NCBI GenBank assembly: GCA_964460485.1
Contig: CAYWRY010000001.1
Span: 21,761-85,760 of the forward strand
DNA from: an uncultured Spirochaetales bacterium
GTDB taxonomy: Bacteria > Myxococcota_A > UBA9160 > UBA6930
Reading direction: 5' to 3'
Length of the DNA: 64,000 bases
Shown: in pieces, positions 1 to 43,384 of the stretch
How positions within the stretch are numbered: position 1 is the first letter of the stretch
Layout: each line of letters begins with the position of its first letter
Program-made: the position numbers and the translations under genes
The notes under the pieces: generated by a model
What the model was told of the DNA's origin: nothing
The model's input: only the letters and a program-made list of their open reading frames with translations
The model's database searches: none

Positions 1-167
1 AGCCAGCCGATCTGCGGGCCGTTGCCGTGGGTGACGACCACGGCATGCTCGCGCGCGAGCGCGGCGACGATCTCGGCGGCGCGCGCGACGGCGGTCTGCT
101 GCTGGGCGAGGGTGGCGCCGCCCGGCGGCGCCAGCGCGTGTCCGCCCAGCGCGACCACGAGCCTCAC
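1..167 (-). CDS. arcC: carbamate kinase, N-terminal part only (gene continues past the left edge)
   Basis: Not in the ORF track because there is no stop in the window. The reverse complement of 1..167 reads (GTG)RLVVALGGHALAPPGGATLAQQQTAVARAAEIVAALAREHAVVVTHGNGPQIGWL. This is an amino-acid-kinase N-terminus with the GNGPQ(V/I)G motif typical of carbamate kinase. The GTG at 165-167 overlaps the upstream stop (GTGA). Confidence 0.65.
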   Translation of the reverse strand, partial: MRLVVALGGHALAPPGGATLAQQQTAVARAAEIVAALAREHAVVVTHGNGPQIGW

Positions 168-1498
168 GGCAACGCTCGCGCGAGGAAGCCGTCGACGAAC
201 GCGCCGAGCCCGGGTTCGCGCGTCTCCGCGTACTCGTAGCGCGCGCGCACCACCGGCAGGCGCAGGCCGAGCAGCGCGGCGAGGTCGATGGGCGTGCCGG
301 CCACGATCGCGTCGGCGGGCGCGGCGTTCAGCGTGGCGGCGAGGGCGGCGCGCTGCGCGGCGTTGTAGCCCAGCGCCGGCAGCACGGGCCCGAGGTGCGG
401 GTAGCGCGCGAGCTCGGCCGCGAGCTCCGGGGGAGCGAACGGGCGCGCGTCTACGATCTCTCTCGCGCCCGCGCGCACCGCCGCCACGTAGCCGGCGCCG
501 TACGGCATGCCGCCGTGGGTGAGCGTCGGGCCGTCGTCCACCACCACCACGCGCTTGCCGCGCACGAGCGCGTCGTCGGCCAACGCGACGGGCGAGGCGC
601 CGCGCACGCGCGGCACGTGCGGTGCGATCGCCGCGAGCGCGGCTTCGACGCGCGCCACGCTCTCCGCCGGCGCCGCGTCGGACTTCGCCACGACGAACAC
701 GTCCGCCATCCGCGCCACCGCCTCGCCCGGATGGTGCGTGTCGACGTCGCCCGGACGCAGCGCGTCGGCGAGCACGACGTGGAGGCCGGGGCGCACGAAG
801 GGGAAGTCGTTGTTCCCACCGTCCCAGAGCAGGACGTCGGCCTCTGCTTCCGCCGCGCTCACGATCGCGCGGTAGTCGACGCCGGCGAACACCGTGCAAC
901 CGCGCTCCAGGTACGGCTCGTACTCCTCGCGCTCCTCGATCGTCGCCGCGGCGACGTCGAGGTCGGAGCGCATCGCGAATCGCTGGACGCGCTGCGCGGC
1001 GAGGTCGCCGTAGGGCATCGGGTGGCGCAGCGCGGCGACGCGCAGTCCGCGCACGCGTAGCCGAGCGGCGATCCAGCGCGCGACCTGGCTCTTGCCGCAG
1101 CCCGTGCGCACCGCCGAGACGGCGATCACCGGGCGCGCGGAGCGCAGCATGGTGCGCGGGCCCGCGAGCGAGAAGTCACAGCCGGCGGCGAGCGCGCGCG
1201 AGGCGAGGTGCATCACGTGAGCGTGGGTCACGTCGCTGTAGGCGAACACCACTTCGTGCGCCCCGTGCTTTGCACACAGCGCCTCCAGCGCGGACTCGGG
1301 CTCGATCGGCACCCCGTTCGGATAGAGCGAACCCGCCAGCGAGGCGGGAAAGGTCCGTCCGGCGATGCCCTCGATCTGCGCCGCCGTGAACGCGACGACC
1401 TCCACCGCCGGATCGTCGCGCCAGAGCGTCAGAAAGTCGTGGAAGTCGCGGCCCGCAGCGCCGAGCACCACGAGGCGCCGCCGCTGGCGGGCGCTCAC
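164..1498 (-). CDS. COG2403-type predicted GTPase / cyclic 2,3-diphosphoglycerate synthetase-like protein
   Basis: C-terminal 444 aa of track ORF 164..2470. GTG at 1496-1498 overlaps the upstream stop (GTGA). Translation VVLGAAGRDFHDF...AVRTGCGKSQVARW...LLWDGGNNDFPF is protein-like and matches this family from memory. The rest of the track ORF is Arg/Pro junk. Confidence 0.75.
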   Translation of the reverse strand: MSARQRRRLVVLGAAGRDFHDFLTLWRDDPAVEVVAFTAAQIEGIAGRTFPASLAGSLYPNGVPIEPESALEALCAKHGAHEVVFAYSDVTHAHVMHLASRALAAGCDFSLAGPRTMLRSARPVIAVSAVRTGCGKSQVARWIAARLRVRGLRVAALRHPMPYGDLAAQRVQRFAMRSDLDVAAATIEEREEYEPYLERGCTVFAGVDYRAIVSAAEAEADVLLWDGGNNDFPFVRPGLHVVLADALRPGDVDTHHPGEAVARMADVFVVAKSDAAPAESVARVEAALAAIAPHVPRVRGASPVALADDALVRGKRVVVVDDGPTLTHGGMPYGAGYVAAVRAGAREIVDARPFAPPELAAELARYPHLGPVLPALGYNAAQRAALAATLNAAPADAIVAGTPIDLAALLGLRLPVVRARYEYAETREPGLGAFVDGFLARALP

Positions 1499-2298
1499 GG
1501 CTTCGCGCGCTCTCCGCCCGCGCAGCGCACGCAGGCGGTGCTGCCCGGCAGCGCGCGCAGGCGCGCGACCGGGATGCGGTCGCCGCAGTGGTCGCAGATG
1601 CCGAAGCGCCCCTGCGCCGCGCGCTCGAGGGCGTGGTCGAGGGCCGCGAGCCGCCGCGCCTTGGCAGCCTCGAGCACTTCCGAGAGCTGCTCGTCGGTGC
1701 GCAGCGACGCGGCGTCGGCCTGGTCGCCGGGCTCGCGCCGCTCCTCCGTGCGCCGGCGGTCGCGTTCCGCGAACTGCGCCAGCTCCTTGGCCACCGCGTC
1801 GCGCTCGCGGCGCAGCTCTTTCAGCAGCGTCTGCTCGGGGGGGACCGGCGCGCGCTCCGTGCTGAGACGCTCCGTCCAGAGATGCGTGGCGAGCGCGCGC
1901 AGCGCGTCGGTCTCGGAGAGGATGCCCGCCAGTCGCCCCGCGCCGTCGACGATCGGCAGGCAGCCGATGCGCCGGTCCGCCATGCGCTCGGCGGCGTGCT
2001 GGAGGGAATCGTCGGGGCCGAGCGTGTCGGGCGCGTGAGTCATCAGGTCCGCAACCGTCCAGTTCGCTTCGGCGTCGCGGGCCTCGACGTCGATCGGGCC
2101 GCGCAGGCTCGCGCCGACGGGCAGGGCGCTGCGCAGGTCGTCGAGCGCGAGCACGCCGACCACGCGGCGGTCTCCGTCGACGACCGGGAGGTGGCGGACG
2201 CCGTGGCGAATCATGCGCTCGTGAGCGGCGAGCGCCGACTCGTCGGCGGTGGCGGTGACGGGGTCCCCGCTCATCCAGCTCTTGATGGCGTCGTGCAT
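1495..2298 (-). CDS. CBS-pair domain fused to a DksA/TraR C4 zinc-finger domain
   Basis: C-terminal 267 aa of ORF 1495..3717, starting MHDAIKSW with GGAGGA 6 nt upstream. The N-terminal half is two CBS-like repeats (HLPVVDGDRRVVGVLALDDL, CLPIVDGAGRLAGILSETD). The C-terminal half has a coiled coil, the tip motif DQADAA (DxxDxA) and CDHCGDRIPVARLRALPGSTACVRC (CxxC-N17-CxxC). Confidence 0.85.
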   Translation of the reverse strand: MHDAIKSWMSGDPVTATADESALAAHERMIRHGVRHLPVVDGDRRVVGVLALDDLRSALPVGASLRGPIDVEARDAEANWTVADLMTHAPDTLGPDDSLQHAAERMADRRIGCLPIVDGAGRLAGILSETDALRALATHLWTERLSTERAPVPPEQTLLKELRRERDAVAKELAQFAERDRRRTEERREPGDQADAASLRTDEQLSEVLEAAKARRLAALDHALERAAQGRFGICDHCGDRIPVARLRALPGSTACVRCAGGERAKP

Positions 2299-2333
2299 CG
2301 GGCTTCCTCCTTGCGCGTCGGCGGAAGGCCAGG

Positions 2334-2349
2334 TGCAAGCGTAGTGCCG
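2334..2349 (-). promoter_or_regulatory. sigma-54 (-24/-12) promoter candidate for the CBS-DksA operon
   Basis: Minus strand reads CGGCACTACGCTTGCA (GGCAC-N5-TTGCA, GG to GC spacing exact). There are 36 nt between the GC and the start codon at 2298, and that stretch contains the GGAGGA RBS. Confidence 0.7.
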
Positions 2350-2453
2350 CACGCGGCTCCTTCCGCACACGTTGCGTCCGGACTCGTCCCGGCGGGTCTG
2401 GGTCGCAGCGACCCACCCCGGGCGCGCCGCGGCATGGGCGCGTCGGGGTTCGG

Positions 2454-2469
2454 TGGCATCCTGCGTGCA
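2454..2469 (+). promoter_or_regulatory. sigma-54 promoter candidate for the K+ channel gene
   Basis: TGGCATCCTGCGTGCA with correct GG-N10-GC spacing. Only 16 nt lie between the GC and the ATG at 2485, so the predicted leader is very short. Divergent from the 2334..2349 site. Confidence 0.6.
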
Positions 2470-2484: not shown

Positions 2485-3492
2485 ATGACGACGACCCCGG
2501 CGCAGCGCATCGCCTTCGCAGCCGCCGCGCTCGCGTTGATCGCGGCGTTCGGAACGGCGGGCTACGTGCTGCTCGAGGGGTGGCCGGTCCTCGACGCGCT
2601 CTACATGACGGTGACCACGATGACGACCGTGGGCTACCGCGAGGTCCATCCGCTGAGCCGCGCGGGTCTGGTCTTCACGATGGTGCTGATCGTCGTCGGG
2701 GTGGGCGGAGCCCTCTACCTGCTCACGCAGGTGGCGGAGCTCATCCTGGACCGCCGCCTGCGCGCGGGCCTGCGAAGGAGAGTCATGGAGCGCTCGATCG
2801 GAAGGCTGTCGGGGCACATCGTGGTGTGCGGGTACGGACGCTTCGGCCGCGTCGTGGCCGACGAGCTGCGCCGCGCCGGGGAGCCGGTCGTGGTCGTGGA
2901 CCTCTCGACCGCGCTCGAAGACGAGCTGGCGACGACAGGCCTGCCGTTCGTGATCGGCACGGCGGCGTCCGACGAGACCCTCGAGCGCGCCGGGGTCGCG
3001 CGCGCTCGAGCGATCGTGGTGGCGACCTCCTCGGACGCGGACAACGTCTTCATCACGCTCGCTGCGCGCGAGCTGAATCCCGGGATCCAGATCTACGCGC
3101 GGGGTGAGAGCGACGCCGCTGCCCGGCGCCTCGAGCGCGCGGGCGCATGCTCGGTGACCTCCCCCTTCCGCATCGGCGGCCAGCGCGTGGCGGCCTCGAT
3201 CCTGCGACCTTCCGTGGTCGATTTCCTCGAGATCGGGCGTCCCCGGCAAGGCGGCGAGGTGGACCTCGAGGAGGTGCGCGTCGCGGCGGGGTCCGCCCTC
3301 GTCGGGCGCGCAGTTCGCGATCTGGAAGCCGAGGCAAGCGGCGTGCGGGTCGTGGCCGTCAAGCGCGCCGGCGAGTCGATGTTGCTGGCGCCGGTCGCCG
3401 AAACGACCATCGGCGCCGGCGACCACGTCGTCGTGATCGGGTCGCGGGCGCCGCTGCTCAAGCTCGCGGAGTCTGCTGCGACCGGCCGCTGA
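2485..3492 (+). CDS. two-TM K+-channel-like protein with RCK (TrkA-N/TrkA-C) domains
   Basis: C-terminal 335 aa of ORF 1588..3492. Contains a pore helix and filter MTVTTMTTVGYRE, a Rossmann motif VVCGYGRFG and a TrkA-C-like tail. The filter is non-canonical: GYRE where GYGD is expected. Confidence 0.85.
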   Translation: MTTTPAQRIAFAAAALALIAAFGTAGYVLLEGWPVLDALYMTVTTMTTVGYREVHPLSRAGLVFTMVLIVVGVGGALYLLTQVAELILDRRLRAGLRRRVMERSIGRLSGHIVVCGYGRFGRVVADELRRAGEPVVVVDLSTALEDELATTGLPFVIGTAASDETLERAGVARARAIVVATSSDADNVFITLAARELNPGIQIYARGESDAAARRLERAGACSVTSPFRIGGQRVAASILRPSVVDFLEIGRPRQGGEVDLEEVRVAAGSALVGRAVRDLEAEASGVRVVAVKRAGESMLLAPVAETTIGAGDHVVVIGSRAPLLKLAESAATGR

Positions 3493-3580: not shown

Positions 3581-3596
3581 GGGCACGCCCTGTGCT
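3581..3596 (+). promoter_or_regulatory. sigma-54 promoter candidate for usp-mgtE
   Basis: GGGCACGCCCTGTGCT (GGCACG-N4-GTGC). There are 27 nt to the ATG at 3623, with GGAGGTG in between. Nearly identical to the 42852..42867 site. Confidence 0.6.
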
Positions 3597-3622: not shown

Positions 3623-4507
3623 ATGCGTGCCCCCCGCAAGATCGTGGTGGCGACGGACTTCTCCGCCTGCGCAGAGCGCGCGCTCTCGGTGGCGCTCGCG
3701 ATCGGCGCCCACGGCAAGGCCGAGATCCATCTCGTGCACGCGCTCGAGGTGCCCGCGGTGGCCTACACGCCCTACGCGACGGCGCTCCCCGACGACCTGC
3801 TGGCCGCCGCGCGCGAGTCGGCGCAGCGGCGCCTCGCCGGCGCGGAAGCGGGCGTCCGCGCGAGCGGCCTCCCGGTTTCGTCGAGCCTCGCGAGCGTGCC
3901 CGCCGGGTCGGCGATCGCGAGCACGGCCAAGCAGATCGGCGCGGATCTGGTGGTGGTCGGATCGCGTGGGCACACGGGGCTCAAGCGGCTCGCGCTGGGC
4001 AGCGTCGCCGAGCACACGGTGAAGGAGTCGCCAGTTTCAGTGCTGACCGTGCGCGGCGAGGGCCACGCCGAGACGCCGAGAGTGATCGTCGTCGGCGTCG
4101 ACTTCTCGGAGGGCTCCGAGCGCGCGGTGGCCCTCGCCGCGGACTGGGCGCGCAGCTTCGGCGCGCAGCTCCAGCTGGTGAACGGTCTCGCTCTGACGAT
4201 GCCGTTCCTCGCGCCCTACGAGGTGACGGTTCCCGACGCGCTGATCGACGAGAGCTACGCCAATGCGAACAAGCGGCTCGCGGCGATCGCCGAGACGCTG
4301 CGCGACCTCGACGTGCACGCGAGCGTGGTGAGCGCCGCGCCCCACGACGCGCTCGACACGGTCGCCGCGCGCGTGAAGGCGGACCTGATCGTGACCGGCT
4401 CGCGCGGGCTGCGCGGGCTCCGGCACGCGCTGCTGGGCAGCGTGGCCGAGCGCACGCTGCGCCACGCGCCGTGCAGCGTGCTCACCGTGAAGAGCGCCGT
4501 CGCGTAG
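3623..4507 (+). CDS. tandem universal stress protein (two UspA domains)
   Basis: Full track ORF, 294 aa. Both halves have USP hallmarks (KIVVATDFS...VVGSRGHTGLKRLALGSVAEHTV and VIVVGVDFS...VTGSRGLRGLRHALLGSVAERTL). Paralog of 40242..41126. Confidence 0.9.
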   Translation: MRAPRKIVVATDFSACAERALSVALAIGAHGKAEIHLVHALEVPAVAYTPYATALPDDLLAAARESAQRRLAGAEAGVRASGLPVSSSLASVPAGSAIASTAKQIGADLVVVGSRGHTGLKRLALGSVAEHTVKESPVSVLTVRGEGHAETPRVIVVGVDFSEGSERAVALAADWARSFGAQLQLVNGLALTMPFLAPYEVTVPDALIDESYANANKRLAAIAETLRDLDVHASVVSAAPHDALDTVAARVKADLIVTGSRGLRGLRHALLGSVAERTLRHAPCSVLTVKSAVA

Positions 4508-4521: not shown

Positions 4522-5520
4522 GTGGAGGTGGAGGCGCAAGCTGCCGCGCCGCGCGAGGGCGCGCTGGTGCTGTTCGAGACGGCCGCGCAGCACGCCACGC
4601 GGCGGGTACCGATCGCGCGCCCGGAGGAAGCCGCCGGCGTGCTGCGCGCCTCGCTCCTGGGACGGCGCTTCGACAGCGCCGCCCACGTGGTGGTGTGCGA
4701 CGCGAACGGACGCTTCCTCGGCCTGCTGCGCACCGAGGACCTGCTGTCGGCGCCCACACACGCGCCGGTGGGCGGGCTGATGGACGCCGCTGCGCCCGTC
4801 GTGGCGCCGGGCGTGGACCAGGAGGTCGCCGCCGTTCGCGCCGCGCAGCGCGGCGAATCGGCGCTCAGCGTCGTCGATGGCGACGGACGCTTCGTGGGGC
4901 TGATTCCGCCGGACCGACTGATCGCGGTCCTGCTCGCCGAGCACGAAGAGGATCTTTCGCACCACGGCGGCTTCCTGGTGCGCGCCGACGCCCTGCGCAC
5001 GAGCGAGGAGCCCGTGCGCATGCGCTTCCGCCATCGCCTGCCATGGCTTCTGCTCGGCCTCGCCTGTGCCCTCGCCGCGGCCGATCTCGTCGCCGGCTTC
5101 GCGACGACGCTCGAGCGGCGCGTCGCGCTCGCGTTCTTCCTGCCCGGCATCGTCTATCTCGCAGACGCCGTCGGCACGCAGACGGAGACGCTGGTCGTGC
5201 GGGCGCTGTCGCTGGGCGTCTCCCTGCGGCGCATGGCCGCGCGCGAGCTGCTGACCGGCTGCGCGATCGGCGTGGCGCTTGCGGCGCTGGCGTTTCCCCT
5301 GCTGTGGCTGCGCTGGCGGGAGGCGGACCTCGCAGCAGCGGTGTCGCTCGCGATGCTCGCCGCGTGCTCCACGGCGACCGTCGCAGCGATGGCGCTGCCG
5401 TGGCTGCTCCAGCGCTCTGGCTTCGACCCCGCCCTCGGCAGCGGCCCGCTCGCGACCGTGCTCCAGGACCTGATCTCGATCCTGCTGTTCTTCGGGATCG
5501 CGGGCGCGATCGCGCCGTGA
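4522..5520 (+). CDS. mgtE: MgtE-family Mg2+ transporter (CBS pair plus MgtE membrane domain, no long N-domain)
   Basis: ORF 4471..5520. The GTG at 4522 was chosen because it lies just after the usp stop, so the start is uncertain. Contains CBS-like repeats, then FFLPGIVYLADAVGTQTETLVVRAL and 5 hydrophobic segments. Confidence 0.8.
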   Translation: MEVEAQAAAPREGALVLFETAAQHATRRVPIARPEEAAGVLRASLLGRRFDSAAHVVVCDANGRFLGLLRTEDLLSAPTHAPVGGLMDAAAPVVAPGVDQEVAAVRAAQRGESALSVVDGDGRFVGLIPPDRLIAVLLAEHEEDLSHHGGFLVRADALRTSEEPVRMRFRHRLPWLLLGLACALAAADLVAGFATTLERRVALAFFLPGIVYLADAVGTQTETLVVRALSLGVSLRRMAARELLTGCAIGVALAALAFPLLWLRWREADLAAAVSLAMLAACSTATVAAMALPWLLQRSGFDPALGSGPLATVLQDLISILLFFGIAGAIAP

Positions 5521-6578: not shown

Positions 6579-6614
6579 CAGCTTCTCGACGCCACCTTCA
6601 CAGGAGGAATGACG

Positions 6615-35267: not shown

Positions 35268-35299
35268 GCGCGACGCCGGCGGGTGCAGCGGGAGGTCGC

Positions 35300-36786: not shown

Positions 36787-37293
36787 TCACCGCCTCCACG
36801 TCACGCGCACGAGGTTTTCGCGCGACGAGGCCGGGACGCGCAGCGTGCCGCGGTGGGCGCGGCGGAGCGCAGCCCCGATCCCGCGCGCCAGCTTGGAGTC
36901 GGTGGTCGCGATCTCGAGGCCGTCGGCCGTCGCCTGGATCGACGCGATGCGCTTCAGCGGGTGCTCGGCGCGCTCGCGCTCTTCGACGTTGCGCGCCAGG
37001 TGCTCGAGCTCTTCGCGATGCTCGGCGACGTACGCACCATGCATCTCCACCACGCCCGCCGGATAGCCGTCCGCGATGCGCTTGCAGGCAGGGCACACCA
37101 CCGGCGCCGCGTCGGCCGGAGCCGCCCCCCAGGCCCAGCGCCCGTTCCGGTAGATCGCGCGGCACTCGCTGCACGCGCTCGGGTCGGGAAGCTTGCGCCG
37201 CAGCGCATAGGGGTCCGAGCGCAGGGGCTTCTTCTGCGCATCCTGGCGCGGCAGGGATCCGGCAGCGTGAGTCTTCGAGCGTTGGCGTCGCAT
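36787..37293 (-). CDS. small Cys-cluster protein (CxxC...CxxC), BCAM0308-like
   Basis: C-terminal 168 aa of ORF 36787..37452. GAGGAGGA lies upstream of the ATG at 37293. CSECRAIYRNGRWAW...VCPACKRIADGYPAGVVEM. The family name is from memory of an NCBI label and needs checking. Confidence 0.65.
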   Translation of the reverse strand: MRRQRSKTHAAGSLPRQDAQKKPLRSDPYALRRKLPDPSACSECRAIYRNGRWAWGAAPADAAPVVCPACKRIADGYPAGVVEMHGAYVAEHREELEHLARNVEERERAEHPLKRIASIQATADGLEIATTDSKLARGIGAALRRAHRGTLRVPASSRENLVRVTWRR

Positions 37294-37316: not shown

Positions 37317-37332
37317 TGCACGGCCCGTACCG
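37317..37332 (-). promoter_or_regulatory. sigma-54 promoter candidate for the BCAM0308-like gene
   Basis: Minus strand reads CGGTACGGGCCGTGCA with exact spacing. There are 24 nt to the ATG at 37293. Confidence 0.45.
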
Positions 37333-37450: not shown

Positions 37451-38695
37451 ATGAACTTCGATCGCGAGTCCCTCCTCGCGTTCTACGAGCTCAGCGACAC
37501 GGAGATCGCCCGCCTCGCCGAGCTGCGGCCGATGCTCGAGAAGCGTGCCGACAGCTTGGTCGCCGCCTTCTACCGGCACCTGCTGGGCTTCCCCGAGACG
37601 CGCAAGCTGCTGCGCGATCCGCGGGTCACCGAGCGGCTGCTGGGGGAGCAGAAGCGCTACCTGCTGAGCCTCGCCTCGCCCACGATCGACGACGCGTACC
37701 TGGAGCAGAGACGCCAGATCGGCGTGGCGCACGAGCGCATCGGGCTCGCGCCGACCTGGTACCTGGGCGCCTATTCGCTCTACGAGGCGCTGCTCGTCCC
37801 CATCTTGCTCGAGGAGTACTCATCGAACCTGGAGCGCGCCCGCGGGCTGCTCATGACCCTGCGGCGGCGGCTGCATCTCGACGCGGCGCTCGCGCTCGAG
37901 ACCTACGTGGACCGTCGCGAGCGGGATCTCGAGTACCTGAACCAGCAGCTTGCCGAGGCGAGCCGCAAGCTCGCGCGCGACCTCGAGAGCACCGGCGTCG
38001 AGCTGCGCTCGAGCCGCGCGCGGGCGCAGGCGGCCGAGCGGCTCGCCTCGATCGGCACCCTCGTCGCCGGCCTCGCCCACGAGATCGGCACGCCCATGGG
38101 CGTGATCCAGGGCCACGCCAAGCTGCTCGAGAACGCCGTGCAGGACGAGAGCGGGCGCTGGCGCCTGCGGACGATTCAGGCACAGATCTCGCGGATCGCG
38201 CGGATCATGGAGAGCCTGCTCAACATGGCGCGGCCCTCCGCGCGGCGTACCCGCGTCCTGGTTGCGCTGCCGGCGGTGCTCGACAACACGCTGGCTTTCC
38301 TGACGGAGCGGCTCACGCGGCGGCGCGTCGAGGTGGTGCGCGACTACGCCGAGACGCCGTCGATCCGCGCCGACCCCGAGGCGCTCCAGCAGATCTTCCT
38401 GAACCTGGTGATGAACGCGATCGACGCCATGCCAAGCGGCGGAGAGCTGCGCGTCTCGATCGCCCCGATCGAGGCCGGCGCGGAGGTGCGCATCGCGGAC
38501 AACGGGAGCGGCATGCCCCCCGAGGCGCGCGAGCGGATCTTCGACCCGTTCTTCACGACGAAGGAGGCCGGCCAGGGCCACGGGCTCGGCCTCGCGGTCG
38601 CCCAAGGCATCGCCCACGACCACGGCGGCGAAATCACCCTGGTCCGCTCCGGCCCGGGCGGCACCGAGTTTCGCGTCACGCTCGCGGCTGAGTGA
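37451..38695 (+). CDS. globin-coupled (protoglobin domain) sensor histidine kinase, cytoplasmic
   Basis: C-terminal 414 aa of ORF 37292..38695. The N-terminal sensor-globin pattern includes the proximal-His region RRQIGVAHERIGLAPTWYLGAY. This is followed by a coiled coil, H-box LAHEIGTP, N-box NLVMNAIDAM and G-boxes DNGSGM and GHGLGL. Confidence 0.85.
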   Translation: MNFDRESLLAFYELSDTEIARLAELRPMLEKRADSLVAAFYRHLLGFPETRKLLRDPRVTERLLGEQKRYLLSLASPTIDDAYLEQRRQIGVAHERIGLAPTWYLGAYSLYEALLVPILLEEYSSNLERARGLLMTLRRRLHLDAALALETYVDRRERDLEYLNQQLAEASRKLARDLESTGVELRSSRARAQAAERLASIGTLVAGLAHEIGTPMGVIQGHAKLLENAVQDESGRWRLRTIQAQISRIARIMESLLNMARPSARRTRVLVALPAVLDNTLAFLTERLTRRRVEVVRDYAETPSIRADPEALQQIFLNLVMNAIDAMPSGGELRVSIAPIEAGAEVRIADNGSGMPPEARERIFDPFFTTKEAGQGHGLGLAVAQGIAHDHGGEITLVRSGPGGTEFRVTLAAE

Positions 38696-38798: not shown

Positions 38799-38814
38799 TG
38801 GCATGAAGCCTGCT
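38799..38814 (+). promoter_or_regulatory. sigma-54 promoter candidate for the activator gene itself
   Basis: TGGCATGAAGCCTGCT. There are 15 nt between the GC and the ATG at 38829, so the leader is predicted to be very short. Implies autoregulation. Confidence 0.6.
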
Positions 38815-38828: not shown

Positions 38829-40238
38829 ATGCGACACACGGCTCAGATCCTCATCGTCGACGATGACCGCGCCATGCGCGAAATGCTTGCCTCGCTGTTC
38901 AAGGAGCGCGGGCTCTGGGTGGAAGAGGCGAGCTCCGCTCGCGCTGCACTCGAGCTCGCGGCGGAGCGCGAGTTCGACGTGGTGCTCTCCGACATCCGCA
39001 TGCCCGGCCTCTCGGGCATCGAGCTGGTGGGACAGCTGCGCCGGCTGCGTCCCAACACGCCGGTCGTGCTGATGACGGCATTCGGCACGATCGACTCGGC
39101 GGTCGAGGCGATGCGCGCGGGCGCCTTCGACTACATCACCAAGCCCTTCGAGCCGGAAGCGGTGAGCTTCGCCGTGGATCGCGCCATCGAGCGCGCGGCC
39201 CTGGCGCGCGAGAACGAGACGCTGCGGCGCGCGGTGCAGACCACCGGCGAGCTGGGCGAGTTGATCGGCTCGAGCGCTGCGATGCGCGACATCATCGCGC
39301 TGATCCAGCGCGTGGGTCACAGCCGCGCGAGCGTGCTGATCACGGGCGAGAGCGGCACGGGAAAGGAGGTGATCGCGCGGACGCTGCACTTCCACGGCGC
39401 GCGTCGCGAGATGCCGTTCGTGCCGATCAACTGCACGGCGATTCCCGAGGGCCTGCTCGAGAGCGAGCTGTTCGGTCACGTGCGCGGCGCCTTCACCGGC
39501 GCGCACACCAACAAGCGCGGCCTGTTCGAGAAGGCCAATGGCGGGACGCTGTTCCTCGACGAGGTCGGCGACATGGGCCTCGCGCTCCAGGGCAAGCTGC
39601 TGCGCGTGCTCCAGGATCGCGAGATCCGGCCGGTGGGCGGTACCCAGACGATCAAGGTGGACGTGCGCATCATCGCGGCCACCAACAAGGACCTGCCCGC
39701 CGAGATCGCCGCCGGGCGTTTCCGCGAGGACCTGTTCTACCGGCTGAACGTCGTGCCCATCCACGTCCCGCCCCTGCGCGAGCGCACCGACGACATCCCG
39801 GCGCTGGTGGAGGCCTTCCTGCGGCGCCACGGCGAGGGGCGCAAGCGCTTCGTCTCCGCCGAGGCGATGGCCGTGCTGCGCGCGCAGCCGTGGCGCGGCA
39901 ACGCCCGCGAGCTGGAGAACACGATCGAGCGCGCGATCGCGCTGACGGACGTGGAGACGCTGGGCCCCGCCGACATCCCGCTGCCGGCGAGCACCGGGGG
40001 TCCGCCCGCGACAGGAGCCTCCGCAGGAGCGCCGGTGGATCTCGACACCCTGCTGCGCGCTGCGGCGGCGCGCGGCACGAGCCTGCGCGACCTCGACGAG
40101 AAGTACACGGCCATCGTGCTCGCCCACACGGGGGGCAACAAGGTGCGCGCGTCGCAGATCCTCGGCATCGACCGGAAGACGCTCTACCGTCGCGCCGAGC
40201 GCCGCGCCCGCGAAGAGGGCGCGAGCGACGAGGAGTGA
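38829..40238 (+). CDS. sigma-54-dependent response regulator (NtrC family: REC-AAA+-HTH)
   Basis: Full ORF, 469 aa. REC domain ILIVDDD...SDIRMPG, Walker A GESGTGKE, the sigma-54 contact loop GAFTGA, FLDEVG and a C-terminal Fis-type HTH NKVRASQILGIDRKTLYRR. Confidence 0.92.
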   Translation: MRHTAQILIVDDDRAMREMLASLFKERGLWVEEASSARAALELAAEREFDVVLSDIRMPGLSGIELVGQLRRLRPNTPVVLMTAFGTIDSAVEAMRAGAFDYITKPFEPEAVSFAVDRAIERAALARENETLRRAVQTTGELGELIGSSAAMRDIIALIQRVGHSRASVLITGESGTGKEVIARTLHFHGARREMPFVPINCTAIPEGLLESELFGHVRGAFTGAHTNKRGLFEKANGGTLFLDEVGDMGLALQGKLLRVLQDREIRPVGGTQTIKVDVRIIAATNKDLPAEIAAGRFREDLFYRLNVVPIHVPPLRERTDDIPALVEAFLRRHGEGRKRFVSAEAMAVLRAQPWRGNARELENTIERAIALTDVETLGPADIPLPASTGGPPATGASAGAPVDLDTLLRAAAARGTSLRDLDEKYTAIVLAHTGGNKVRASQILGIDRKTLYRRAERRAREEGASDEE

Positions 40239-40241
40239 CGC

Positions 40242-41126
40242 GTGAAGAGCCCCCGCAAGATCCTGGTGGCGACCGACTTCTCCGCCGGCGCCGAGCGCGC
40301 GTTGGACACGGCGCTCGCGCTCGCCGCTCCAGCGAAGGGCGAAGTGCACGTGGTGCACGCGCTCGAGATCCCGCTGCCGATGTTCGAGCCCTACGCGGTC
40401 GCGCTTCCGCCGGAGCTGATCGGCGCCGCCCGCAAGACGGCGCAAGAGAAGCTCGCCGCGGCCGGCGAGAAGGTGCGCGCGCGCGGTCTCACCGGCACGA
40501 CCTTCCTCGGCGAGGTGCCGGCTTCGATGTGCGTCGCCGAGCGCGCCAAGGCAATCGGCGCGGATCTGGCGGTGATCGGCACCCACGGCCACACCGGCTT
40601 CAAGCGCTTCCTGCTCGGCAGCGTCGCGGAGCGCACGGTGAAGGAATCTCCGGTCTCGGTGCTCACGGTGAAGGGCGAGGGGCGCGCCGAGGCGCCCAAG
40701 ACGATCGTGATCGGCGTCGACTTCTCGAAGCACTCCCAGGAAGCCGTGGAGCTGGCCGCGGACTGGGCGCGGGCGTTCGGCGCGACTCTCTACCTGGTGC
40801 ACGGCCTCGAGCTGCGCATGCCGTTCGTCACTCCGTACGAGGTATCGGTGCCGGACGCGCTCATCGACGCCGCCTACGCGGAGGGCAAGAAGCGCCTCCA
40901 GGAGCTGGCCGGGAAGCTCACGGGCGTGAACGTGCGCACGGAGCTCGCGAGCGCACCCGCCCACGCGGCCCTCGACGGCGTGGCAGAACGCGTCCGCGCG
41001 GACTTGATCGTGACCGGCTCGCGCGGCCTCGGCGGCATCAAGCATGCGGTGCTCGGCAGCGTCGCGGAGCGCACGCTGCGCCACGCGCCGTGCAGCGTGC
41101 TCACGGTGAAGTCGCACATCGGGTGA
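40242..41126 (+). CDS. tandem universal stress protein (paralog of 3623..4507)
   Basis: Full ORF, 294 aa. GTG is 4 nt after the activator stop. Roughly 60% identical by eye to 3623..4507 and the same length. Confidence 0.9.
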   Translation: MKSPRKILVATDFSAGAERALDTALALAAPAKGEVHVVHALEIPLPMFEPYAVALPPELIGAARKTAQEKLAAAGEKVRARGLTGTTFLGEVPASMCVAERAKAIGADLAVIGTHGHTGFKRFLLGSVAERTVKESPVSVLTVKGEGRAEAPKTIVIGVDFSKHSQEAVELAADWARAFGATLYLVHGLELRMPFVTPYEVSVPDALIDAAYAEGKKRLQELAGKLTGVNVRTELASAPAHAALDGVAERVRADLIVTGSRGLGGIKHAVLGSVAERTLRHAPCSVLTVKSHIG

Positions 41127-41215
41127 CGCGGCGCCGCTCGCGCGGCGGCGAGGCGAAGCATGGGGATCGGTGAGGCGCCGCGAATCCGGCTCGCCGCTCG
41201 CGCCGGCGCGCGCTG

Positions 41216-42808
41216 ATGAGTGCGCTGAGCCAAGTGGGATCGATGCTCGCGCTCGGCGTGGCGCTGCTGCTGTTCGGGATGTGGCTGCTGCGCGAGGGGA
41301 TGCGCGAGTTCGCCGGCGCGCGGCTCCAGCGCTGGCTCACGCGCGTGACCCAGAGCCCACTGCGCGGCGCGCTGGCCGGGGCGGCCGCCACGGCGGCGGT
41401 GCAGTCGTCGAGCGCGACGATCGTCACGGCGATCGGCTTCGCGAGCACGGGTCTACTCGAGTTCTCGCAGGCGCTCGGGATCGTCTTCGGCGCGAACGTC
41501 GGCACGACGCTGACCGGCTGGCTGGTGCTCGCCGTCGGGATCCGCTGGAAGCTCGTCTTCGCAGCGCCGCTGCTCGCCCTCGTGGGCGTCTGGCTGCATC
41601 TCTATGCCCAGCGCCGCCTCGCCAGCGCCGGCCGCGTGATCGGCGGACTCGCGCTCGCGCTGCTCGGCATCGAGGCGCTCGGCAGCGCCCTCTCCGGAGA
41701 CGCGGTGGCGAGCGCACTCGCGGCAGTTCCGGGCGACTCCCTCGGCTCCCGGCTCGCGCTGGTCGCCATCGGCACCGGGATCACGCTGGTCGCGCAGTCC
41801 TCCTCGGCGGGCGTGGCCGCGGCGCTCGCGGCCGTGCATGCGGGGGCGCTCGACCTCGGCCAGGCCGCCGCGGTGGTGATCGGCTTCGACCTCGGCACGA
41901 CGGGCAGCGCCGTGCTCGCCTCGCTGCGCGGCTCGCTCGCCGCGCGCCGCACCAGCTTCGCGCACGTGATCTTCAACGTGTTCACCGCGCTGGGCGCGCT
42001 GCTGCTGCTGCCCGCGCTTTCCGTGCTGCTCGCGGCCCTTGCGCGCAGCGGGCACGCGCTGTCCCCGGAGGTCGCGCTCGTGGCCTTCCACTCGACCTTC
42101 AACCTGGCCGGCGCGGCCGCGGCGATCCCGCTGGCGGGCCCGTTCGCCGCGCTCGTCGAGCGTCTCGTCCCCGAGCGGCGGCGCACGCTCACGCGCCGGC
42201 TCGACGCGCGGCTGCTGCGGGAGCCCGACGTCGCCCTCGACGCGGCGTCGGCGACGCTCGGCGAGATCGCGCTCCAGGCGTTCGCGCGGCTCGAGGGCAT
42301 GCTCGCCGGAACGCCGTGCGATCCCGGCGAGATCGAGCTGCTCGAGAGCGCGCTCGTGGAGACCCAGCAGTTCGTGGCCCGGATCCGGTGTGAGGCGAGC
42401 GAGGCGCAGGCGCTCGTCTCCGCGCTGCACGCCGTCGACGAGCTGCACCGCCTGCTCGATCGCATGCAGCAGGAGGGACGCGTCGCGCCCTTCGCCGAGG
42501 ACGCCGAGCTGGCGGGGCGTGCGCGCGCGCTTTCGGCTGCGCTGCCCCGGCCCCTGGAGGCGCGCGAGCGCGCCGAGGGCGGAGTGGAGCGCGCCGCCGC
42601 CGAGCTCGCCGCGGAGCGCAGCGCTCACCGCGAGCGCATCCTCGCGGCGGCCAGTCGCGGCGAGCTCACGCCCGCGGCGGCCCTCGACCGCATGGACAGC
42701 TGGCGCTGGCTGGAGCGTTGCGCTCACCACGCGTGGCGGATCGTCCACCACATTGGCCGAGTCGGCGCCTCGAGCGGCGCCGAGCGCGAGCCCGCAGAGC
42801 CCTCTTGA
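41216..42808 (+). CDS. Na/Pi cotransporter family protein with PhoU-like C-terminal region
   Basis: Full ORF, 530 aa. Repeated QSSSAT/QSSSAG motifs, GANVGTT/GFDLGTT and multiple TM segments. Confidence 0.85.
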   Translation: MSALSQVGSMLALGVALLLFGMWLLREGMREFAGARLQRWLTRVTQSPLRGALAGAAATAAVQSSSATIVTAIGFASTGLLEFSQALGIVFGANVGTTLTGWLVLAVGIRWKLVFAAPLLALVGVWLHLYAQRRLASAGRVIGGLALALLGIEALGSALSGDAVASALAAVPGDSLGSRLALVAIGTGITLVAQSSSAGVAAALAAVHAGALDLGQAAAVVIGFDLGTTGSAVLASLRGSLAARRTSFAHVIFNVFTALGALLLLPALSVLLAALARSGHALSPEVALVAFHSTFNLAGAAAAIPLAGPFAALVERLVPERRRTLTRRLDARLLREPDVALDAASATLGEIALQAFARLEGMLAGTPCDPGEIELLESALVETQQFVARIRCEASEAQALVSALHAVDELHRLLDRMQQEGRVAPFAEDAELAGRARALSAALPRPLEARERAEGGVERAAAELAAERSAHRERILAAASRGELTPAAALDRMDSWRWLERCAHHAWRIVHHIGRVGASSGAEREPAEPS

Positions 42809-42851
42809 GCCGCGCGTGGCGCGCGCCGGCTGCGCCCGCGAGCGCATCGCC

Positions 42852-42867
42852 GGGCACGCCTCGTGCA
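42852..42867 (+). promoter_or_regulatory. sigma-54 promoter candidate for the second hsp20
   Basis: GGGCACGCCTCGTGCA. There are 39 nt to the ATG at 42906, with GAGGAGG in between. Very similar to the usp site at 3581..3596. Confidence 0.6.
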
Positions 42868-42905
42868 CTCGGATCGCAGTGCAAGAAGCGTACGAGGAGG
42901 CGTCC

Positions 42906-43361
42906 ATGGCCGAGAGCAGGCGGCCCGGTGTTGCGACGCACGGGCCCGCCAGAGTCGACCCACCGGCGGAGGGCGCGGGCGCGCGAGTCTATCCCCGCGA
43001 GTTCCTGGAGGCGTTCTGGGGCCACGGCGGGCGGGAGTTGCCCGTACTCGACGTGTGCGAGGGCGAGGACGGCTACGTCGTGAGCGCCGAGCTGCCCGGC
43101 GTGAGCCGCGAGGACGTGACCGTCGAGGTGCTCGGGCACGTGCTCACGATCCGGGGCGAGAAGAAGCGTGCGTGCGAGCGGGAGGCCGAACGCTGCCGCG
43201 TCGTCGAGCGCACGTTCGGCGCGTTCTCGCGCAGCTTCACGCTGCCCGCGGACGCGAACGCAGAGCGCATCTCCGCCACGCTCGAGCACGGTGTGCTGAC
43301 CGTGACGGTGGCCAAGCAATGCGAGCGGGCGCCGCGCGTGATCGAGGTCGGCTCGAGCTGA
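42906..43361 (+). CDS. Hsp20/alpha-crystallin small heat-shock protein (second copy)
   Basis: C-terminal 151 aa of ORF 42039..43361. LDVCEGEDGYVVSAELPGVSREDVTVEVLGHVLTIRGEKK...FSRSFTLPADANAERISATLEHGVLTVTV. Confidence 0.9.
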   Translation: MAESRRPGVATHGPARVDPPAEGAGARVYPREFLEAFWGHGGRELPVLDVCEGEDGYVVSAELPGVSREDVTVEVLGHVLTIRGEKKRACEREAERCRVVERTFGAFSRSFTLPADANAERISATLEHGVLTVTVAKQCERAPRVIEVGSS

Positions 43362-43384
43362 CGCCCTCGCGCCTGCGGAGGGCG
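43362..43384 (+). terminator. hairpin immediately after the hsp20 stop (possible terminator; marks the right end of the island)
   Basis: CGCCCTC-gcgcctgcg-GAGGGCG: 7-bp stem, 9-nt loop, no U tract. Confidence 0.35.

Follow-up and report, generated by a model that had tools for sequence, protein, structure and literature searches.

A roughly 50 kb dormancy-type gene cluster with predicted sigma-54 promoters beside a globin kinase in an uncultured Myxococcota bacterium

An uncultured member of the Myxococcota, sampled as JGI metagenome contig Ga0394876_0000277, carries a chromosomal dormancy-type cluster of roughly 50 kb, in which predicted sigma-54 promoters lie next to a globin kinase in place of DosR or FNR sites. 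On balance we favour, as reasonably probable, the reading that it is a sigma-54-wired toolkit for growth arrest and low oxygen, under a sensor kinase (g38) and an activator (g39), and built of shared mobile modules that have been re-wired in each lineage.

Extent and gene content of the cluster

Gene calling by codon usage, with training on the window (the whole stretch of 64,000 nucleotides that was analysed, 74% GC), gave 42 genes in positions 1–43,384 and overlooked one more, g2b. About 6.4 kb of the cluster lies beyond the left window end, where g1 is followed by NADH-51K-like and molybdopterin formate-dehydrogenase-like genes; the right border lies between g42 and g43, around position 43,400. 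GC content is uniform and neither an integrase nor a tRNA was found in the window, and nothing therefore points to the island having been acquired recently as one unit. Gene classes were assigned using Pfam and NCBIfam:

3..167, minus: g1, N-terminal part of carbamate kinase, gene continuing off the window
164..1498, minus: g2, conserved 444-aa protein
1495..2299, minus: g2b, CBS pair with DksA/TraR C4 zinc finger, seen in translation, hidden beneath a shadow ORF
2485..3492, plus: g3, K+ channel with TrkA_N/TrkA_C (RCK) domains
3623..4507, plus: g4, tandem universal stress protein (USP)
4522..5520, plus: g5, CBS and MgtE-type divalent cation transporter domain
5543..6382, minus: g6, ClpP-like SDH-type serine protease (PF01972)
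6609..7076, plus: g7, Hsp20/alpha-crystallin
7181..8266, plus: g8, CxxCH protein without assigned function
8311..9933, plus: g9, GroEL paralog
9938..10471, plus: g10, HPF (S30AE) fused to a cold-shock domain, a chimeric ribosome hibernation factor
10492..11262, plus: g11, Tll0287-like (heme c PAS-like) protein with CxxCH
11314..12919, minus: g13, Glu/Leu/Phe/Val dehydrogenase; g12, YbaK-type tRNA-editing domain protein
13149..14837, plus: g14, APH-like N-terminal region and AAA_33 P-loop kinase
14920..17218, plus: g15, cyclopropane-fatty-acyl-phospholipid (CFA) synthase; g16, FAD-binding oxidoreductase
17281..22528, minus: g21, acetate-CoA ligase (ACS); g20, E1 alpha; g19, E1 beta; g18, E2; g17, acyl carrier protein
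22660..24613, minus: g24, signal peptide-like; g23, LysM and YkuD L,D-transpeptidase; g22, Peptidase_M15_2/DUF882
24765..26761, plus: g25, small phosphoribosyltransferase (PRT; 24765–25409); g26, malic enzyme
26758..30421, minus: g29, hemerythrin; g28, stand-alone CBS pair (29496–29975); g27, P2-type cation ATPase (26758–29358)
30616..30867, plus: g30, DUF4404 protein
30882..32117, minus: g31, CxxCH protein
32539..36691, plus: g33, small coiled-coil; g34, PRPP synthase-like; g35, thymidine/AMP phosphorylase family; g36, MBL/beta-CASP/RMMBL nuclease
36787..37293, minus: g37, BCAM0308-family, zinc ribbon and Nmd3-like fold
37451..38695, plus: g38, globin-coupled histidine kinase (HemAT-type protoglobin; HisKA with H-box HEIGTP; HATPase_c)
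38829..42808, plus: g39, NtrC-type activator; g40, tandem USP (40242–41126); g41, Na/Pi cotransporter
42909..43361, plus: g42, Hsp20, right-hand cluster end

All of the gene classes listed in the initial annotation are present, and the paralog pairs it pointed out are real: the USPs g4/g40 share 64% identity, the Hsp20s g7/g42 47%, and g8/g31, which contain one CxxCH each, 37%. Its mention of a 'BCAM0308 family' was also correct, g37 scoring 176 bits against the NCBIfam equivalog NF040826 lxa_BCAM0308 (cutoff 100). The thymidine/AMP phosphorylase g35 belongs to the archaeal-type family NF003338 (610 bits), and g34–g36 constitute a prs/TP/MBL trio. Homologs of g14 are named 'bifunctional aminoglycoside phosphotransferase/ATP-binding protein' by PGAP. 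The counterpart of g2b in L095 is a JGI call of 267 aa with PF00571 and PF01258, while g2, for which no Pfam or NCBIfam family was matched, has a homolog paired with carbamate kinase in L037 too. The g15–g16 pair is found again beside BCAM0308 homologs.

These genes are arranged in about 19 transcription units with one predicted sigma-54 promoter apiece, and together they would equip the cell for growth arrest and energy limitation. Proteins and ribosomes may be protected by the two Hsp20s, the GroEL paralog, the HPF-cold-shock chimera, the BCAM0308/Nmd3-like protein, the two tandem USPs and the CBS proteins; ion homeostasis would fall to the P2-type ATPase, K+ channel, MgtE-like protein and Na/Pi transporter, and envelope remodelling to the L,D-transpeptidase, M15 peptidase and CFA synthase. 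Nucleotide salvage may be provided by the prs/TP/MBL trio, the PRT and the APH/AAA_33 kinase, and low-oxygen carbon and energy metabolism by the ACS-E1-E2-ACP operon, malic enzyme, the Glu/Leu/Phe/Val dehydrogenase (GDH) and carbamate kinase with the FDH-like gene; a hemerythrin would complete the set.

Predicted sigma-54 promoters

The island contains 19 candidate -24/-12 elements, all intergenic and oriented toward the next gene, whose start lies 6–66 nt away. The consensus derived from them is cGGcAyG-N4-yTGCw, in which GG, A, T and GC do not vary over all 19:

2334..2349, minus: CBS-DksA, g2, carbamate kinase unit (CGGCACTACGCTTGCA)
2454..2469, plus: K+ channel g3; uncertain candidate, the JGI start codon lying upstream of the element
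3581..3596, plus: g4–g5
6415..6430, minus: g6
6563..6578, plus: g7–g11 operon
12947..12962, minus: g13–g12; identical in L001
13106..13121, plus: g14; identical in L001
14840..14855, plus: g15–g16
22541..22556, minus: g21–g17 operon
24646..24661, minus: g24–g23–g22
24724..24739, plus: g25–g26
30457..30472, minus: g29–g28–g27
30588..30603, plus: g30; conserved in L010
32149..32164, minus: g31
32174..32189, plus: g32; back to back with the g31 promoter
32518..32533, plus: g33–g36
37317..37332, minus: g37
38799..38814, plus: between kinase g38 and activator g39; conserved in L097 and L098
42852..42867, plus: g42

At a score of at least 18, the 2,486 bp of island intergenic DNA contain 15 sites, compared to a mean of 0.25 (maximum 2) in 300 dinucleotide shuffles of the same DNA and none in the 1,713 bp of intergenic DNA outside the island, and the sigma-54 marking proposed in the initial annotation is therefore not attributable to chance. 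Three sites at this score lie in 59.5 kb of coding DNA. The promoters are also kept in orthologous intergenic DNA of related metagenome-assembled genomes (MAGs), as in L001 and L010, and BCAM0308 homologs have one upstream in 13 Myxococcota-type loci and in none of the proteobacterial loci.

Sensor kinase, activator and direction of the signal

As regulators, the cluster encodes g38 and g39 only. The g38 globin matches HemAT (E 4e-16), with equivalents of the distal Tyr70 and proximal His123 conserved, and the kinase half of g38 is nearest to ZraS, which works with a sigma-54 activator; g39 has a REC domain with its Asp, an AAA+ domain with GAFTGA, and HTH_8. No sigma-54 promoter belonging to g38 itself was found in the window. 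The HK-EBP-USP core is kept in other Myxococcota MAGs at 57–67% identity, with one sigma-54 promoter separating HK from EBP and a second, divergent one upstream of HK; in distant MAGs only this core and a few neighbours stay together. Among these neighbours are USPs, Hsp20, g8/g31 (g8 adjoining the core in distant MAGs), g33, DUF4404, CBS proteins and hemerythrin.

In the mechanism we propose, the g38 heme would sense O2 (or NO/CO) and set the phosphorylation state of g39, which when phosphorylated would oligomerise and open sigma-54 holoenzyme at promoters throughout the island, among them that of its own unit (g39-USP-NaPi), giving positive feedback. All 19 promoters would be served by g39, the signal would be oxygen, and the regulon would probably be ON when oxygen falls. 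Control by sigma-54 and a globin kinase, as put forward in the initial annotation, is drawn from adjacency only, and a search for a common enhancer (UAS) motif upstream of the 19 promoters found none.

The lack of a shared motif would fit an arrangement that we regard as unlikely but deserving of weight, in which there is no single regulon and the co-located sigma-54 genes answer to several activators encoded elsewhere (e.g. for heat shock or general stress), g38/g39 acting on g37 and g39–g41 only. The limited neighbourhood kept in distant MAGs points the same way, as does the g8–g16 part in L001, which sits among different genes, RtcB/archease for instance, on a 450 kb contig that nevertheless bears a g38 homolog (P0288). 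The island Hsp20, GroEL and protease are typical heat-shock genes; a sigma-54 activator is used for heat-shock genes in M. xanthus, and many such activators are encoded in myxobacteria, thus several may share the island. However, promoter density is limited to the island and stops at its edge, the 50 kb contain one activator gene, and in other systems these gene families are grouped under one regulator (DosR or FNR).

An oxygen regulon of related design, with sigma-54 and a protoglobin kinase, has already been published in Myxococcota: NmpRSTU of M. xanthus combines a protoglobin kinase, the NtrC-like NmpR and a hypoxia-induced sigma-54 regulon containing CBS, USP and hemerythrin genes (PMC11841059). 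There an additional hybrid kinase, NmpS, inverts the globin-kinase signal (PMC11841059), while no NmpS/NmpT-like gene was found in the window, L097 or L098, and direct g38-to-g39 signalling could therefore mean ON in oxygen. Under this opposite logic, which we consider rather improbable, O2-bound g38 would phosphorylate g39 directly, and the cluster would serve a microaerophilic or anaerobic myxobacterium as an arrest programme against oxygen exposure or oxidative stress, not against hypoxia. This logic would suit the anaerobic-type metabolism in the cluster (carbamate kinase with the FDH-like gene) and the globin kinase AfGcHK, whose autophosphorylation, according to PMC8697598, is enhanced by O2 binding and which is most active when O2-bound. 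However, the g38 globin is close to HemAT-type sensors and only distantly similar to AfGcHK (E 4.7e-5), such that this coupling may not transfer, and the DosR, lxa and NmpR toolkits are all low-oxygen-induced (PMC3721108, PMC5309233, PMC11841059).

Shared modules and comparison with DosR and lxa loci

The favoured reading, a low-oxygen toolkit under g38/g39, includes modules held in common with DosR-type and lxa-type loci. An overlap between lxa and DosR was already pointed out in 2013 (PMC3721108), and the initial annotation likened this island to both; several modules are indeed alike beyond generic domains (the five-gene operon, APH/AAA_33, PRT, MBL, prs, GroEL and BCAM0308). Its claim of close M. 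tuberculosis counterparts was not borne out for the two proteins compared, Rv2623 being absent from the g4 matches at E<1e-6 and Rv2626c matching g28 at E 4.7e-4 (rank 53 of 59); on sequence, both appear to be generic domain relatives only of the island USPs and CBS pair. Relatives of other modules were found on the plasmid pDK1 of Rhodococcus (Mycobacteriales), whose response regulator matches DevR (E 1.5e-97) and whose kinase matches DosT/DevS (E 1e-64); by these matches the two appear to be true DosR/DosT orthologs. This DosRS locus contains ACS-E1a-E1b-E2-ACP in the order of g21–g17 (60, 66, 67, 44 and 42% identity) and a g14 APH/AAA_33 homolog (40%).

The Burkholderia and Ralstonia lxa-like loci share with the island MBL (49%), prs (41%), GroEL (45%), Hsp20, a PRT (54% and 48% to g25, respectively) and BCAM0308 (36–38% to g37), and that of Ralstonia a g14 APH/AAA homolog (34%). 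For lxa of B. cenocepacia J2315, Table 4 of Sass 2013 includes from the prs/TP/MBL trio only BCAM0300, 'metal-dependent RNase'. As a plasmid module the trio is widespread, and it is also found in metal-resistance islands. The TP gene occurs on 126 plasmids and E1a on 32 from several phyla (65–72% identity), and BCAM0308, APH/AAA, TP and E1a are repeatedly together on the same replicons.

That the similarity reflects convergent assembly of analogous but unrelated genes, as the initial annotation proposed, is highly doubtful: it would accord with the family-level likeness of the island USP, CBS, Hsp20 and HPF proteins to their M. tuberculosis counterparts and with promoters and regulators unrelated between systems, but not with an operon order kept at 42–67% identity between Myxococcota and Rhodococcus, the plasmid-borne E1a, the BCAM0308 equivalog, the PRT identities or the recurrent replicons. 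The 60–72% cross-phylum identity, conserved operon order and plasmid carriage argue instead for shared, horizontally spread modules, many of which are, judged by these alignments, true homologs of those in the pDK1 DosR/DosT locus and in the Burkholderiaceae FNR-box (lxa type) loci.

The different wiring claimed for the island was borne out by a motif scan of each locus (sigma-54 at a score of at least 18, FNR box, DosR-like box):

Window island: sigma-54 17, FNR 0, DosR-like 0
Rhodococcus DosRS locus: sigma-54 4 (counted regardless of position to genes), FNR 0, DosR-like 3
Burkholderia lxa-like locus: sigma-54 7 (counted regardless of position to genes), FNR 12, DosR-like 0
Ralstonia lxa-like locus: sigma-54 10 (counted regardless of position to genes), FNR 7, DosR-like 0

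The three kinds of locus may accordingly be versions of a horizontally mobile toolkit common to these lineages, each of which would have wired the modules to its own oxygen-responsive regulator.

Gene content and extent of the island

Since the window is uniformly ~74% GC, raw ORF lists were useless, and genes were called with a codon-usage caller trained on the window itself, giving 62 genes over its whole length. One further gene (g2b) was recovered by hand from beneath a long, well-scoring shadow ORF to which it lies antisense and which the caller had fused to a K+ channel gene; it is independently supported by the JGI gene calls. The JGI start codons of the K+ channel gene and of the Hsp20 gene g7 would put sigma-54 promoters inside genes, and are therefore probably too far upstream. 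Every gene class named in the initial annotation is present in the island according to Pfam and NCBIfam, and the genes needed here are as follows.

Genes of the island and its right flank
g1: carbamate kinase fragment
g2b, 1495-2299, minus strand: CBS pair with a DksA/TraR zinc finger
g4 and g40: tandem USPs
g7 and g42: Hsp20s
g8, 7181-8266, plus strand: member of an unnamed family
g10: S30AE/HPF domain fused to a cold-shock domain
g14: AAA_33 P-loop kinase with a long N-terminal region
g15: CFA synthase
g23: LysM-YkuD L,D-transpeptidase
g25: small phosphoribosyltransferase (PRT)
g29-g28-g27: one unit of hemerythrin, stand-alone CBS pair (g28, 29496-29975, minus strand) and P2-type cation ATPase
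g31, 30882-32117, minus strand: paralog of g8
g34-g36: trio of PRPP-synthase, thymidine-phosphorylase-family and MBL-beta-CASP proteins
g37, 36787-37293, minus strand: BCAM0308-family protein
g38 then g39: protoglobin histidine kinase (414 aa), then REC-AAA+-HTH_8 sigma-54 activator (Pfam)
g46, 46085-47056: ornithine carbamoyltransferase, just past the right edge of the island

Homologs of g14 carry the PGAP name 'bifunctional aminoglycoside phosphotransferase/ATP-binding protein' (APH/AAA), and a PDB search with g14 returned no solved relative. The paralog pairs reported initially are real, with 64% identity between g4 and g40, 47% between g7 and g42, and 37% between g8 and g31, each of the last two containing one CxxCH. 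The g8/g31 family (360–410 aa, a single CxxCH) has no match in Pfam or NCBIfam.

The leftmost unit extends ~6.4 kb past the window in a near-identical contig, in the order CBS-DksA, g2, carbamate kinase, NADH-dehydrogenase 51K-like and molybdopterin formate-dehydrogenase-like. Its off-window part (L095 1385-6536, left of window position 1) encodes a Complex1_51K/NADH_4Fe-4S protein and an 863-aa formate-dehydrogenase-like protein. Together with g46, this unit suggests that arrested cells could generate ATP from citrulline or arginine and cycle formate/NADH. The right edge of the island is at g42/g43, beyond which lie ordinary metabolic genes lacking promoters of the kind described below. Scans of the window for tRNA genes and Rfam families were both empty.

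The compared genes are 98–100% identical at the protein level to those of JGI metagenome contig Ga0394876_0000277 (160.8 kb; sample 3300037465), and the closest relatives of the island genes come from MAGs labelled Myxococcota or 'Myxococcota bacterium'. Seven contigs (L010, L014, L015, L040, L045, L059, L061) are titled 'uncultured Spirochaetales' or 'Spirochaetaceae (isolate HK-STAS-MYXO-51)'. They carry island genes at 73–91% identity (L010) or a BCAM0308 homolog at 46–55% (the others), with sigma-54 promoters too, and their spirochaete labels look wrong.

Sigma-54 promoters and the g38/g39 pair

A strict search for TGGCAC-N5-TTGC (at most one mismatch) returned only four sites, which is not significant; this consensus fails because most island sites start with C rather than T. 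A weighted scan requiring GG-N10-GC found 19 sites, all intergenic, aimed at the adjacent gene and 6–66 nt from its start, several of them in back-to-back divergent pairs. The GG (-24) and GC (-12) are exactly 10 nt apart; all 19 sites share GG, an A at +5, and T and GC in the -12 element, and 16 of the 19 have G at position 7. At a score of at least 18, the 2,486 bp of island intergenic DNA contain 15 sites, compared to a mean of 0.25 (maximum 2) in 300 dinucleotide shuffles, none in the 1,713 bp of intergenic DNA beyond the island and three in 59.5 kb of coding DNA. The marking of island units by sigma-54 sites, as first proposed, is thus far beyond chance. When the intergenic regions are aligned with their orthologs in two related MAG contigs (L001 and L010), conservation is highest at the promoter elements, which are also kept in two others (L097 and L098). 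By spacing, position and conservation they are predicted sigma-54-dependent promoters.

No rpoN gene lies in the 64-kb window. Dyad enumeration, mismatched 12-mers and k-mer enrichment revealed no consistent enhancer architecture upstream of the island promoters; the sole enriched hexamer, CGGGGC, gave none on positional inspection, and in footprinting against L001, L010 and L011 the promoters were conserved, the central blocks no more than ambiguous. Several activators may therefore share the island. An AT-rich element (GTGCAGAAT / GTAGAAT / GTGTAGAAT / GGTACAAT) occurs at window ~38735-38750 and in L010, L097 and L098, preceding the activator gene's sigma-54 promoter by ~50–110 nt, and is conserved in these four otherwise very GC-rich loci. 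Possible roles are a basal sigma-70 -10 box, an IHF-type site or an enhancer component.

The kinase g38 combines Protoglobin (4.2e-35), HisKA and HATPase_c domains (Pfam) with the H-box HEIGTP. Its sensor domain is HemAT-like (E 4e-16 in PDB, followed by Vibrio and Geobacter globin-coupled sensors) rather than AfGcHK/NmpU-like (AfGcHK globin 5OHE, E 4.7e-5 only), and its Y53 and H106 align with HemAT Tyr70 and His123, respectively the distal and the proximal heme residue of HemAT. For the kinase half the nearest match is ZraS, itself partnered with a sigma-54 activator. On these domains and key residues g38 is assigned as a globin-coupled sensor histidine kinase, for which a heme/gas response is predicted. 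The adjacent g39 has Response_reg (4.6e-32), Sigma54_activat (7.4e-72) and HTH_8 (8.9e-8) domains, GAFTGA at residue 220, the receiver Asp motif DVVLSDIRMPG and a Fis-type C-terminal HTH, and is by domain and motif a predicted NtrC-type bacterial enhancer-binding protein. No sigma-54 promoter is specific to g38; one is placed between it and g39, and another, divergent, serves g37.

The same layout (divergent sigma-54 gene, globin kinase, sigma-54 promoter, activator, USP) recurs at 57–67% identity in L097 and L098, one of them from an assembly labelled Myxococcota, where the neighbours include USPs, Hsp20, g8/g31, g33, DUF4404, CBS proteins and hemerythrin. Members of the g8/g31 family, each behind its own sigma-54 promoter in the island, adjoin this core in distant Myxococcota MAGs at 39–47% identity (L097 19267-20322; L098 4673-5728 and 13803-14963). 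It is mainly this conserved association that points, indirectly, to g38/g39 as candidate regulators of the island genes.

A related pathway is known from Myxococcus xanthus (Bretl et al. 2018, PMC6211767; McAllister et al. 2025, PMC11841059), in which the protoglobin kinase NmpU acts through NmpS on the NtrC-like NmpR, which under hypoxia activates sigma-54 promoters of CBS, USP, cbb3, hemN and hemerythrin genes (PMC11841059). An NmpRSTU system was considered for g38/g39 and ruled out, by the globin clade, the absence of NmpS/NmpT and an unenriched NmpR site. No further kinase or receiver gene that might form the NmpS/NmpT relay was found in the window, nor beside the core in L097 and L098, and the NmpR site GCGCA-N5-TGCGC has 42 matches vs 36.6 expected, not placed upstream of promoters. 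Nor did the cluster yield the cbb3 oxidase, hemN and pilR genes that belong to the NmpR regulon.

Shared genes and differing regulatory motifs in lxa-type and DosR loci

Sass et al. (2013, PMC3721108) described the low-oxygen-activated (lxa) locus of Burkholderia cenocepacia J2315, reporting both an Anr/FNR-like motif and an overlap with the DosR regulon. The initial annotation was right to name the BCAM0308 family: g37 matches the equivalog NF040826 (lxa_BCAM0308) at 176.3 bits, above the cutoff of 100. Genomes scanned with an alignment of this family yielded 79 loci, in Myxococcota-type MAGs, Nitrosomonadales, Gallionellaceae, Methylococcales and others. Of the 59 that are not Myxococcota-type, 22 have an Hsp20 neighbour, and HPF, GroEL, CFA synthase with its FAD partner, PRT and APH/AAA genes are also found nearby. 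On plasmid p2 of Burkholderia sp. JP2-270 the order is nitroreductase, BON, Hsp20, ABC quartet, BON, BCAM0308, FtsH, PRT, erythromycin esterase, USP and Hsp20, in agreement with BCAM0302-0309 (Table 4 of PMC3721108); its PRT is 54% identical to g25. Ralstonia wenshanensis p56D2 adds a P-type ATPase, CBS and two HPFs, and matches the island in APH/AAA (34% over 91% of length), GroEL (45%), MBL (49%) and prs (41%). BCAM0308 genes also occur outside such loci: the copies in B. stagnalis (L090) and the 5.9-Mb genome L007 have no toolkit nearby.

The MBL/thymidine-phosphorylase-family/PRPP-synthase trio, also likened initially to lxa, is less informative. For prs and thymidine phosphorylase in the J2315 locus the two lxa papers searched yield only BCAM0300, 'metal-dependent RNase' (PMC3721108), and the thymidine-phosphorylase member was not seen in the Burkholderia and Ralstonia stretches examined. 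The trio is present on 126 plasmid records, 49 of them conjugative, and on Ralstonia insidiosa pB1901 (L091 12607-20966) it lies within a copper/metal resistance region, ahead of a CFA-synthase-family gene and a heavy-metal P-type ATPase. As a widespread plasmid module found also in such a region it is not diagnostic of hypoxia loci, and it may serve general stress or nucleotide salvage rather than a hypoxia-specific role.

Aligned BCAM0308-family proteins share a CxxC...CPAC zinc ribbon and an invariant HPLKR motif, and their genes are often near HPF and Hsp20 genes. The match of g37 to Pfam NMD3 is 28 bits, and the best PDB matches of its AlphaFold model (pLDDT 86) are to eukaryotic Nmd3 on pre-60S, albeit weak (prob 0.93, E 0.045, TM 0.44). 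Nmd3 binds the large subunit interface. Given this binding and the Nmd3-like model, the family may be a bacterial large-subunit-binding or hibernation-promoting factor.

Direct comparison with the M. tuberculosis DosR regulon covered proteins with PDB entries. Rv2623 is absent from the g4 matches at E<1e-6, and Rv2626c ranks 53rd of 59 matches to g28 (E 4.7e-4); by sequence both appear to be generic relatives only. g10 resembles a solved HPF that spans both its domains (9t0z, E 7e-10), and RafH is not among its PDB matches. The best PDB matches of g28 are CBS-domain chains from very recent entries (9e6q_3, 9zni_6, 9znf_5, 9l96_a), whose numeric or lower-case chain names suggest large assemblies; CBS-domain hibernation factors (Hib, Dri) in archaea are mentioned in a preprint. 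In L001 4740-6634 (ERZ25039524 contig_1848), a syntenic g8-GroEL-HPF ... GDH-APH/AAA-CFA-FAD stretch is interrupted by RtcB and archease and also has a DUF155 gene; RtcB (Rv2631) is also counted among DosR-regulon members in a review.

More specific homologs of DosRS-associated genes are found on plasmid pDK1 of Rhodococcus sp. DK17 (L094), with a DevR ortholog (3C3W, E 1.5e-97; next best 1e-40) and a DosT/DevS ortholog (2VZW, 1e-64). Its ACP-E2-E1b-E1a-ACS operon has the gene order of window g17-g21, at 42, 44, 67, 66 and 60% identity, and its APH/AAA_33 kinase is 40% identical to g14 over 86% of length; the locus also encodes a USP, a pfkB-type kinase, three CBS proteins, a second USP and Hsp20. 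Homology beyond generic domains is seen for the ACS-E1-E2-ACP operon and APH/AAA kinase of this DosRS-associated locus, and is not for Rv2623 and Rv2626c. Between the divergent ACS-E1-E2-ACP and GNAT/APH-AAA/pfkB operons, L094 12670-12847 contains two tandem AGGACC half-sites 11 nt apart, weakly Dev-box-like and missing the strict pattern.

Regulatory motifs were counted in four loci using a sigma-54 score of at least 18 and TTGAT-N4-ATCAA for FNR (at most one mismatch); sigma-54 counts outside the window are irrespective of gene position.

Regulatory motifs in the island and in comparable loci
Window island: sigma-54 17; FNR 0; DosR-like 0
Burkholderia lxa-like locus: sigma-54 7 (motif count only); FNR 12, several just upstream of BON, Hsp20 and USP genes; DosR-like 0
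Ralstonia lxa-like locus: sigma-54 10 (motif count only); FNR 7; DosR-like 0
Rhodococcus DosRS locus: sigma-54 4 (motif count only); FNR 0; DosR-like 3, two directly upstream of CBS and Hsp20 genes

These counts support the earlier claim that the island is wired differently. Dev boxes (GGGAC-N4-GTCCC core, at most one mismatch) number 0 in the island vs 3 in the Rhodococcus locus. By Pfam the window has no CRP/FNR gene, and neither a DosR-type NarL/LuxR regulator nor a GAF-heme DosS/DosT, for which the DevR and DosT matches in Rhodococcus serve as a positive control. Of the 79 BCAM0308 loci, 13 Myxococcota-type ones and no proteobacterial one have a strong sigma-54 promoter ahead of the BCAM0308 gene; some proteobacterial loci carry FNR-like boxes instead. 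Sigma-54 wiring thus appears to be a lineage-level property of these Myxococcota.

The initial annotation had attributed the similarity to DosR and lxa to convergent assembly of a similar survival toolkit. This is the least supported explanation, as the DosRS-associated Rhodococcus genes are, on identity and conserved synteny, specific homologs rather than convergent look-alikes. E1a of the ACS-E1-E2-ACP operon is 65–72% identical on 32 plasmids (Actinomycetota, Alpha- and Betaproteobacteria, Desulfotalea), often a few to ~20 kb from BCAM0308 or APH/AAA homologs on the same replicon, and DosR-regulon genes are, according to a review, conserved among environmental bacteria, with horizontal transfer as a possible cause. 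The data favour shared mobile modules that would have been re-wired in each lineage.

We advance a broader proposal tentatively, rating it at rather less than an even chance: that a portable cross-phylum dormancy or low-oxygen toolkit is carried on plasmids and plugged into the oxygen sensor of each lineage. It would comprise ACS-E1-E2-ACP, the APH/AAA_33 kinase, PRT, prs/TP/MBL, CFA synthase with its FAD partner, the BCAM0308/Nmd3-like protein, chimeric HPF, USPs, Hsp20s, CBS proteins and the P-type ATPase. The sensors would be GAF-heme DosS/T with DosR, FNR/Anr, and in Myxococcota a previously uncharacterised HemAT-type globin kinase directly feeding a sigma-54 activator. Under the same proposal BCAM0308 and stand-alone CBS proteins would be unrecognised ribosome factors, binding the large subunit or promoting hibernation.

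Proposed pathway and comparison with known systems

The most likely pathway is one in which g38 would sense O2 (or NO/CO) and act through g39, which would switch on the clustered sigma-54 regulon for surviving growth arrest, with positive feedback on g39. The sign of the oxygen response could go either way, since AfGcHK, the Anaeromyxobacter homolog of NmpU, is activated by O2 (PMC8697598) and no relay that would invert the signal was found here. Publications already cover both the overlap of lxa with DosR and the use of sigma-54 together with a protoglobin kinase by Myxococcota. What sets the island apart is its regulatory front end, not previously characterised, with a direct pairing of HemAT-type globin kinase and sigma-54 activator, and an unusually dense array of promoters.

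Should g38/g39 prove to govern the island, a largely shared hypoxia/growth-arrest toolkit would have a third wiring with a mechanism of its own, beside DosRS/T and FNR/Anr, and the locus would offer a compact natural experiment on regulon re-wiring after horizontal transfer. Conserved co-occurrence nominates several uncharacterised genes as core dormancy factors, namely the APH/AAA_33 kinase (Rv2004c-like by architecture), the BCAM0308/Nmd3-like protein, the g8/g31 family and the ACS-E1-E2-ACP operon, all testable in tractable hosts (Mycobacterium, Burkholderia, Myxococcus). The island also suggests a candidate regulon for the globin-kinase pathway in the wider group including Anaeromyxobacter, where the Nmp targets were stated to be unknown (PMC11841059). 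The cross-phylum toolkit and its three wirings merit specialist attention.

With NmpRSTU the island shares its Myxococcota setting, a heme protoglobin-type kinase on top, an NtrC-like activator and sigma-54 promoters, and with the NmpR regulon it shares CBS-domain, USP and hemerythrin genes; hypoxia induction is a feature of the NmpR system. It differs in that kinase and activator are adjacent and the regulon is clustered, with ~19 promoters compared to 7 for NmpR, and in having the DosR/lxa-type toolkit as well. Among globin-coupled sensors (HemAT, AfGcHK, Geobacter, Vibrio), g38 shares the sensor-globin fold, distal Tyr and proximal His, and like AfGcHK, to whose globin it is only distantly related, has a histidine kinase output. 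Unlike these known sensors, its probable partner is a sigma-54 activator encoded directly downstream.

Lxa-type loci resemble the island in their ~50 kb clustering, BCAM0308 protein, Hsp20s, USPs, cation ATPase, MBL-type RNase and PRT, and the Ralstonia lxa-like locus also has APH/AAA, HPF, GroEL, CBS and prs in common with it. However, they carry FNR/Anr boxes and CRP/FNR regulators (PMC3721108), which the island lacks, and the lxa-type BON-domain proteins, FtsH, PHA synthesis genes, nitroreductases and ABC efflux quartet were not found in it. Nitroreductase, narK2/narX, tgs1 and class II RNR of the DosR regulon were likewise not found in the cluster. With that regulon the island shares multiple USPs, alpha-crystallin, a CBS protein, a P-type ATPase, a non-canonical HPF, a PRTase and an APH/AAA-type kinase. 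A heme-based kinase stands on top in both, but the regulator is an NtrC-type sigma-54 activator in the island and a LuxR/NarL-type response regulator in DosR systems, and the sensor is a globin in the one and a GAF domain (DosS/DosT) in the other.
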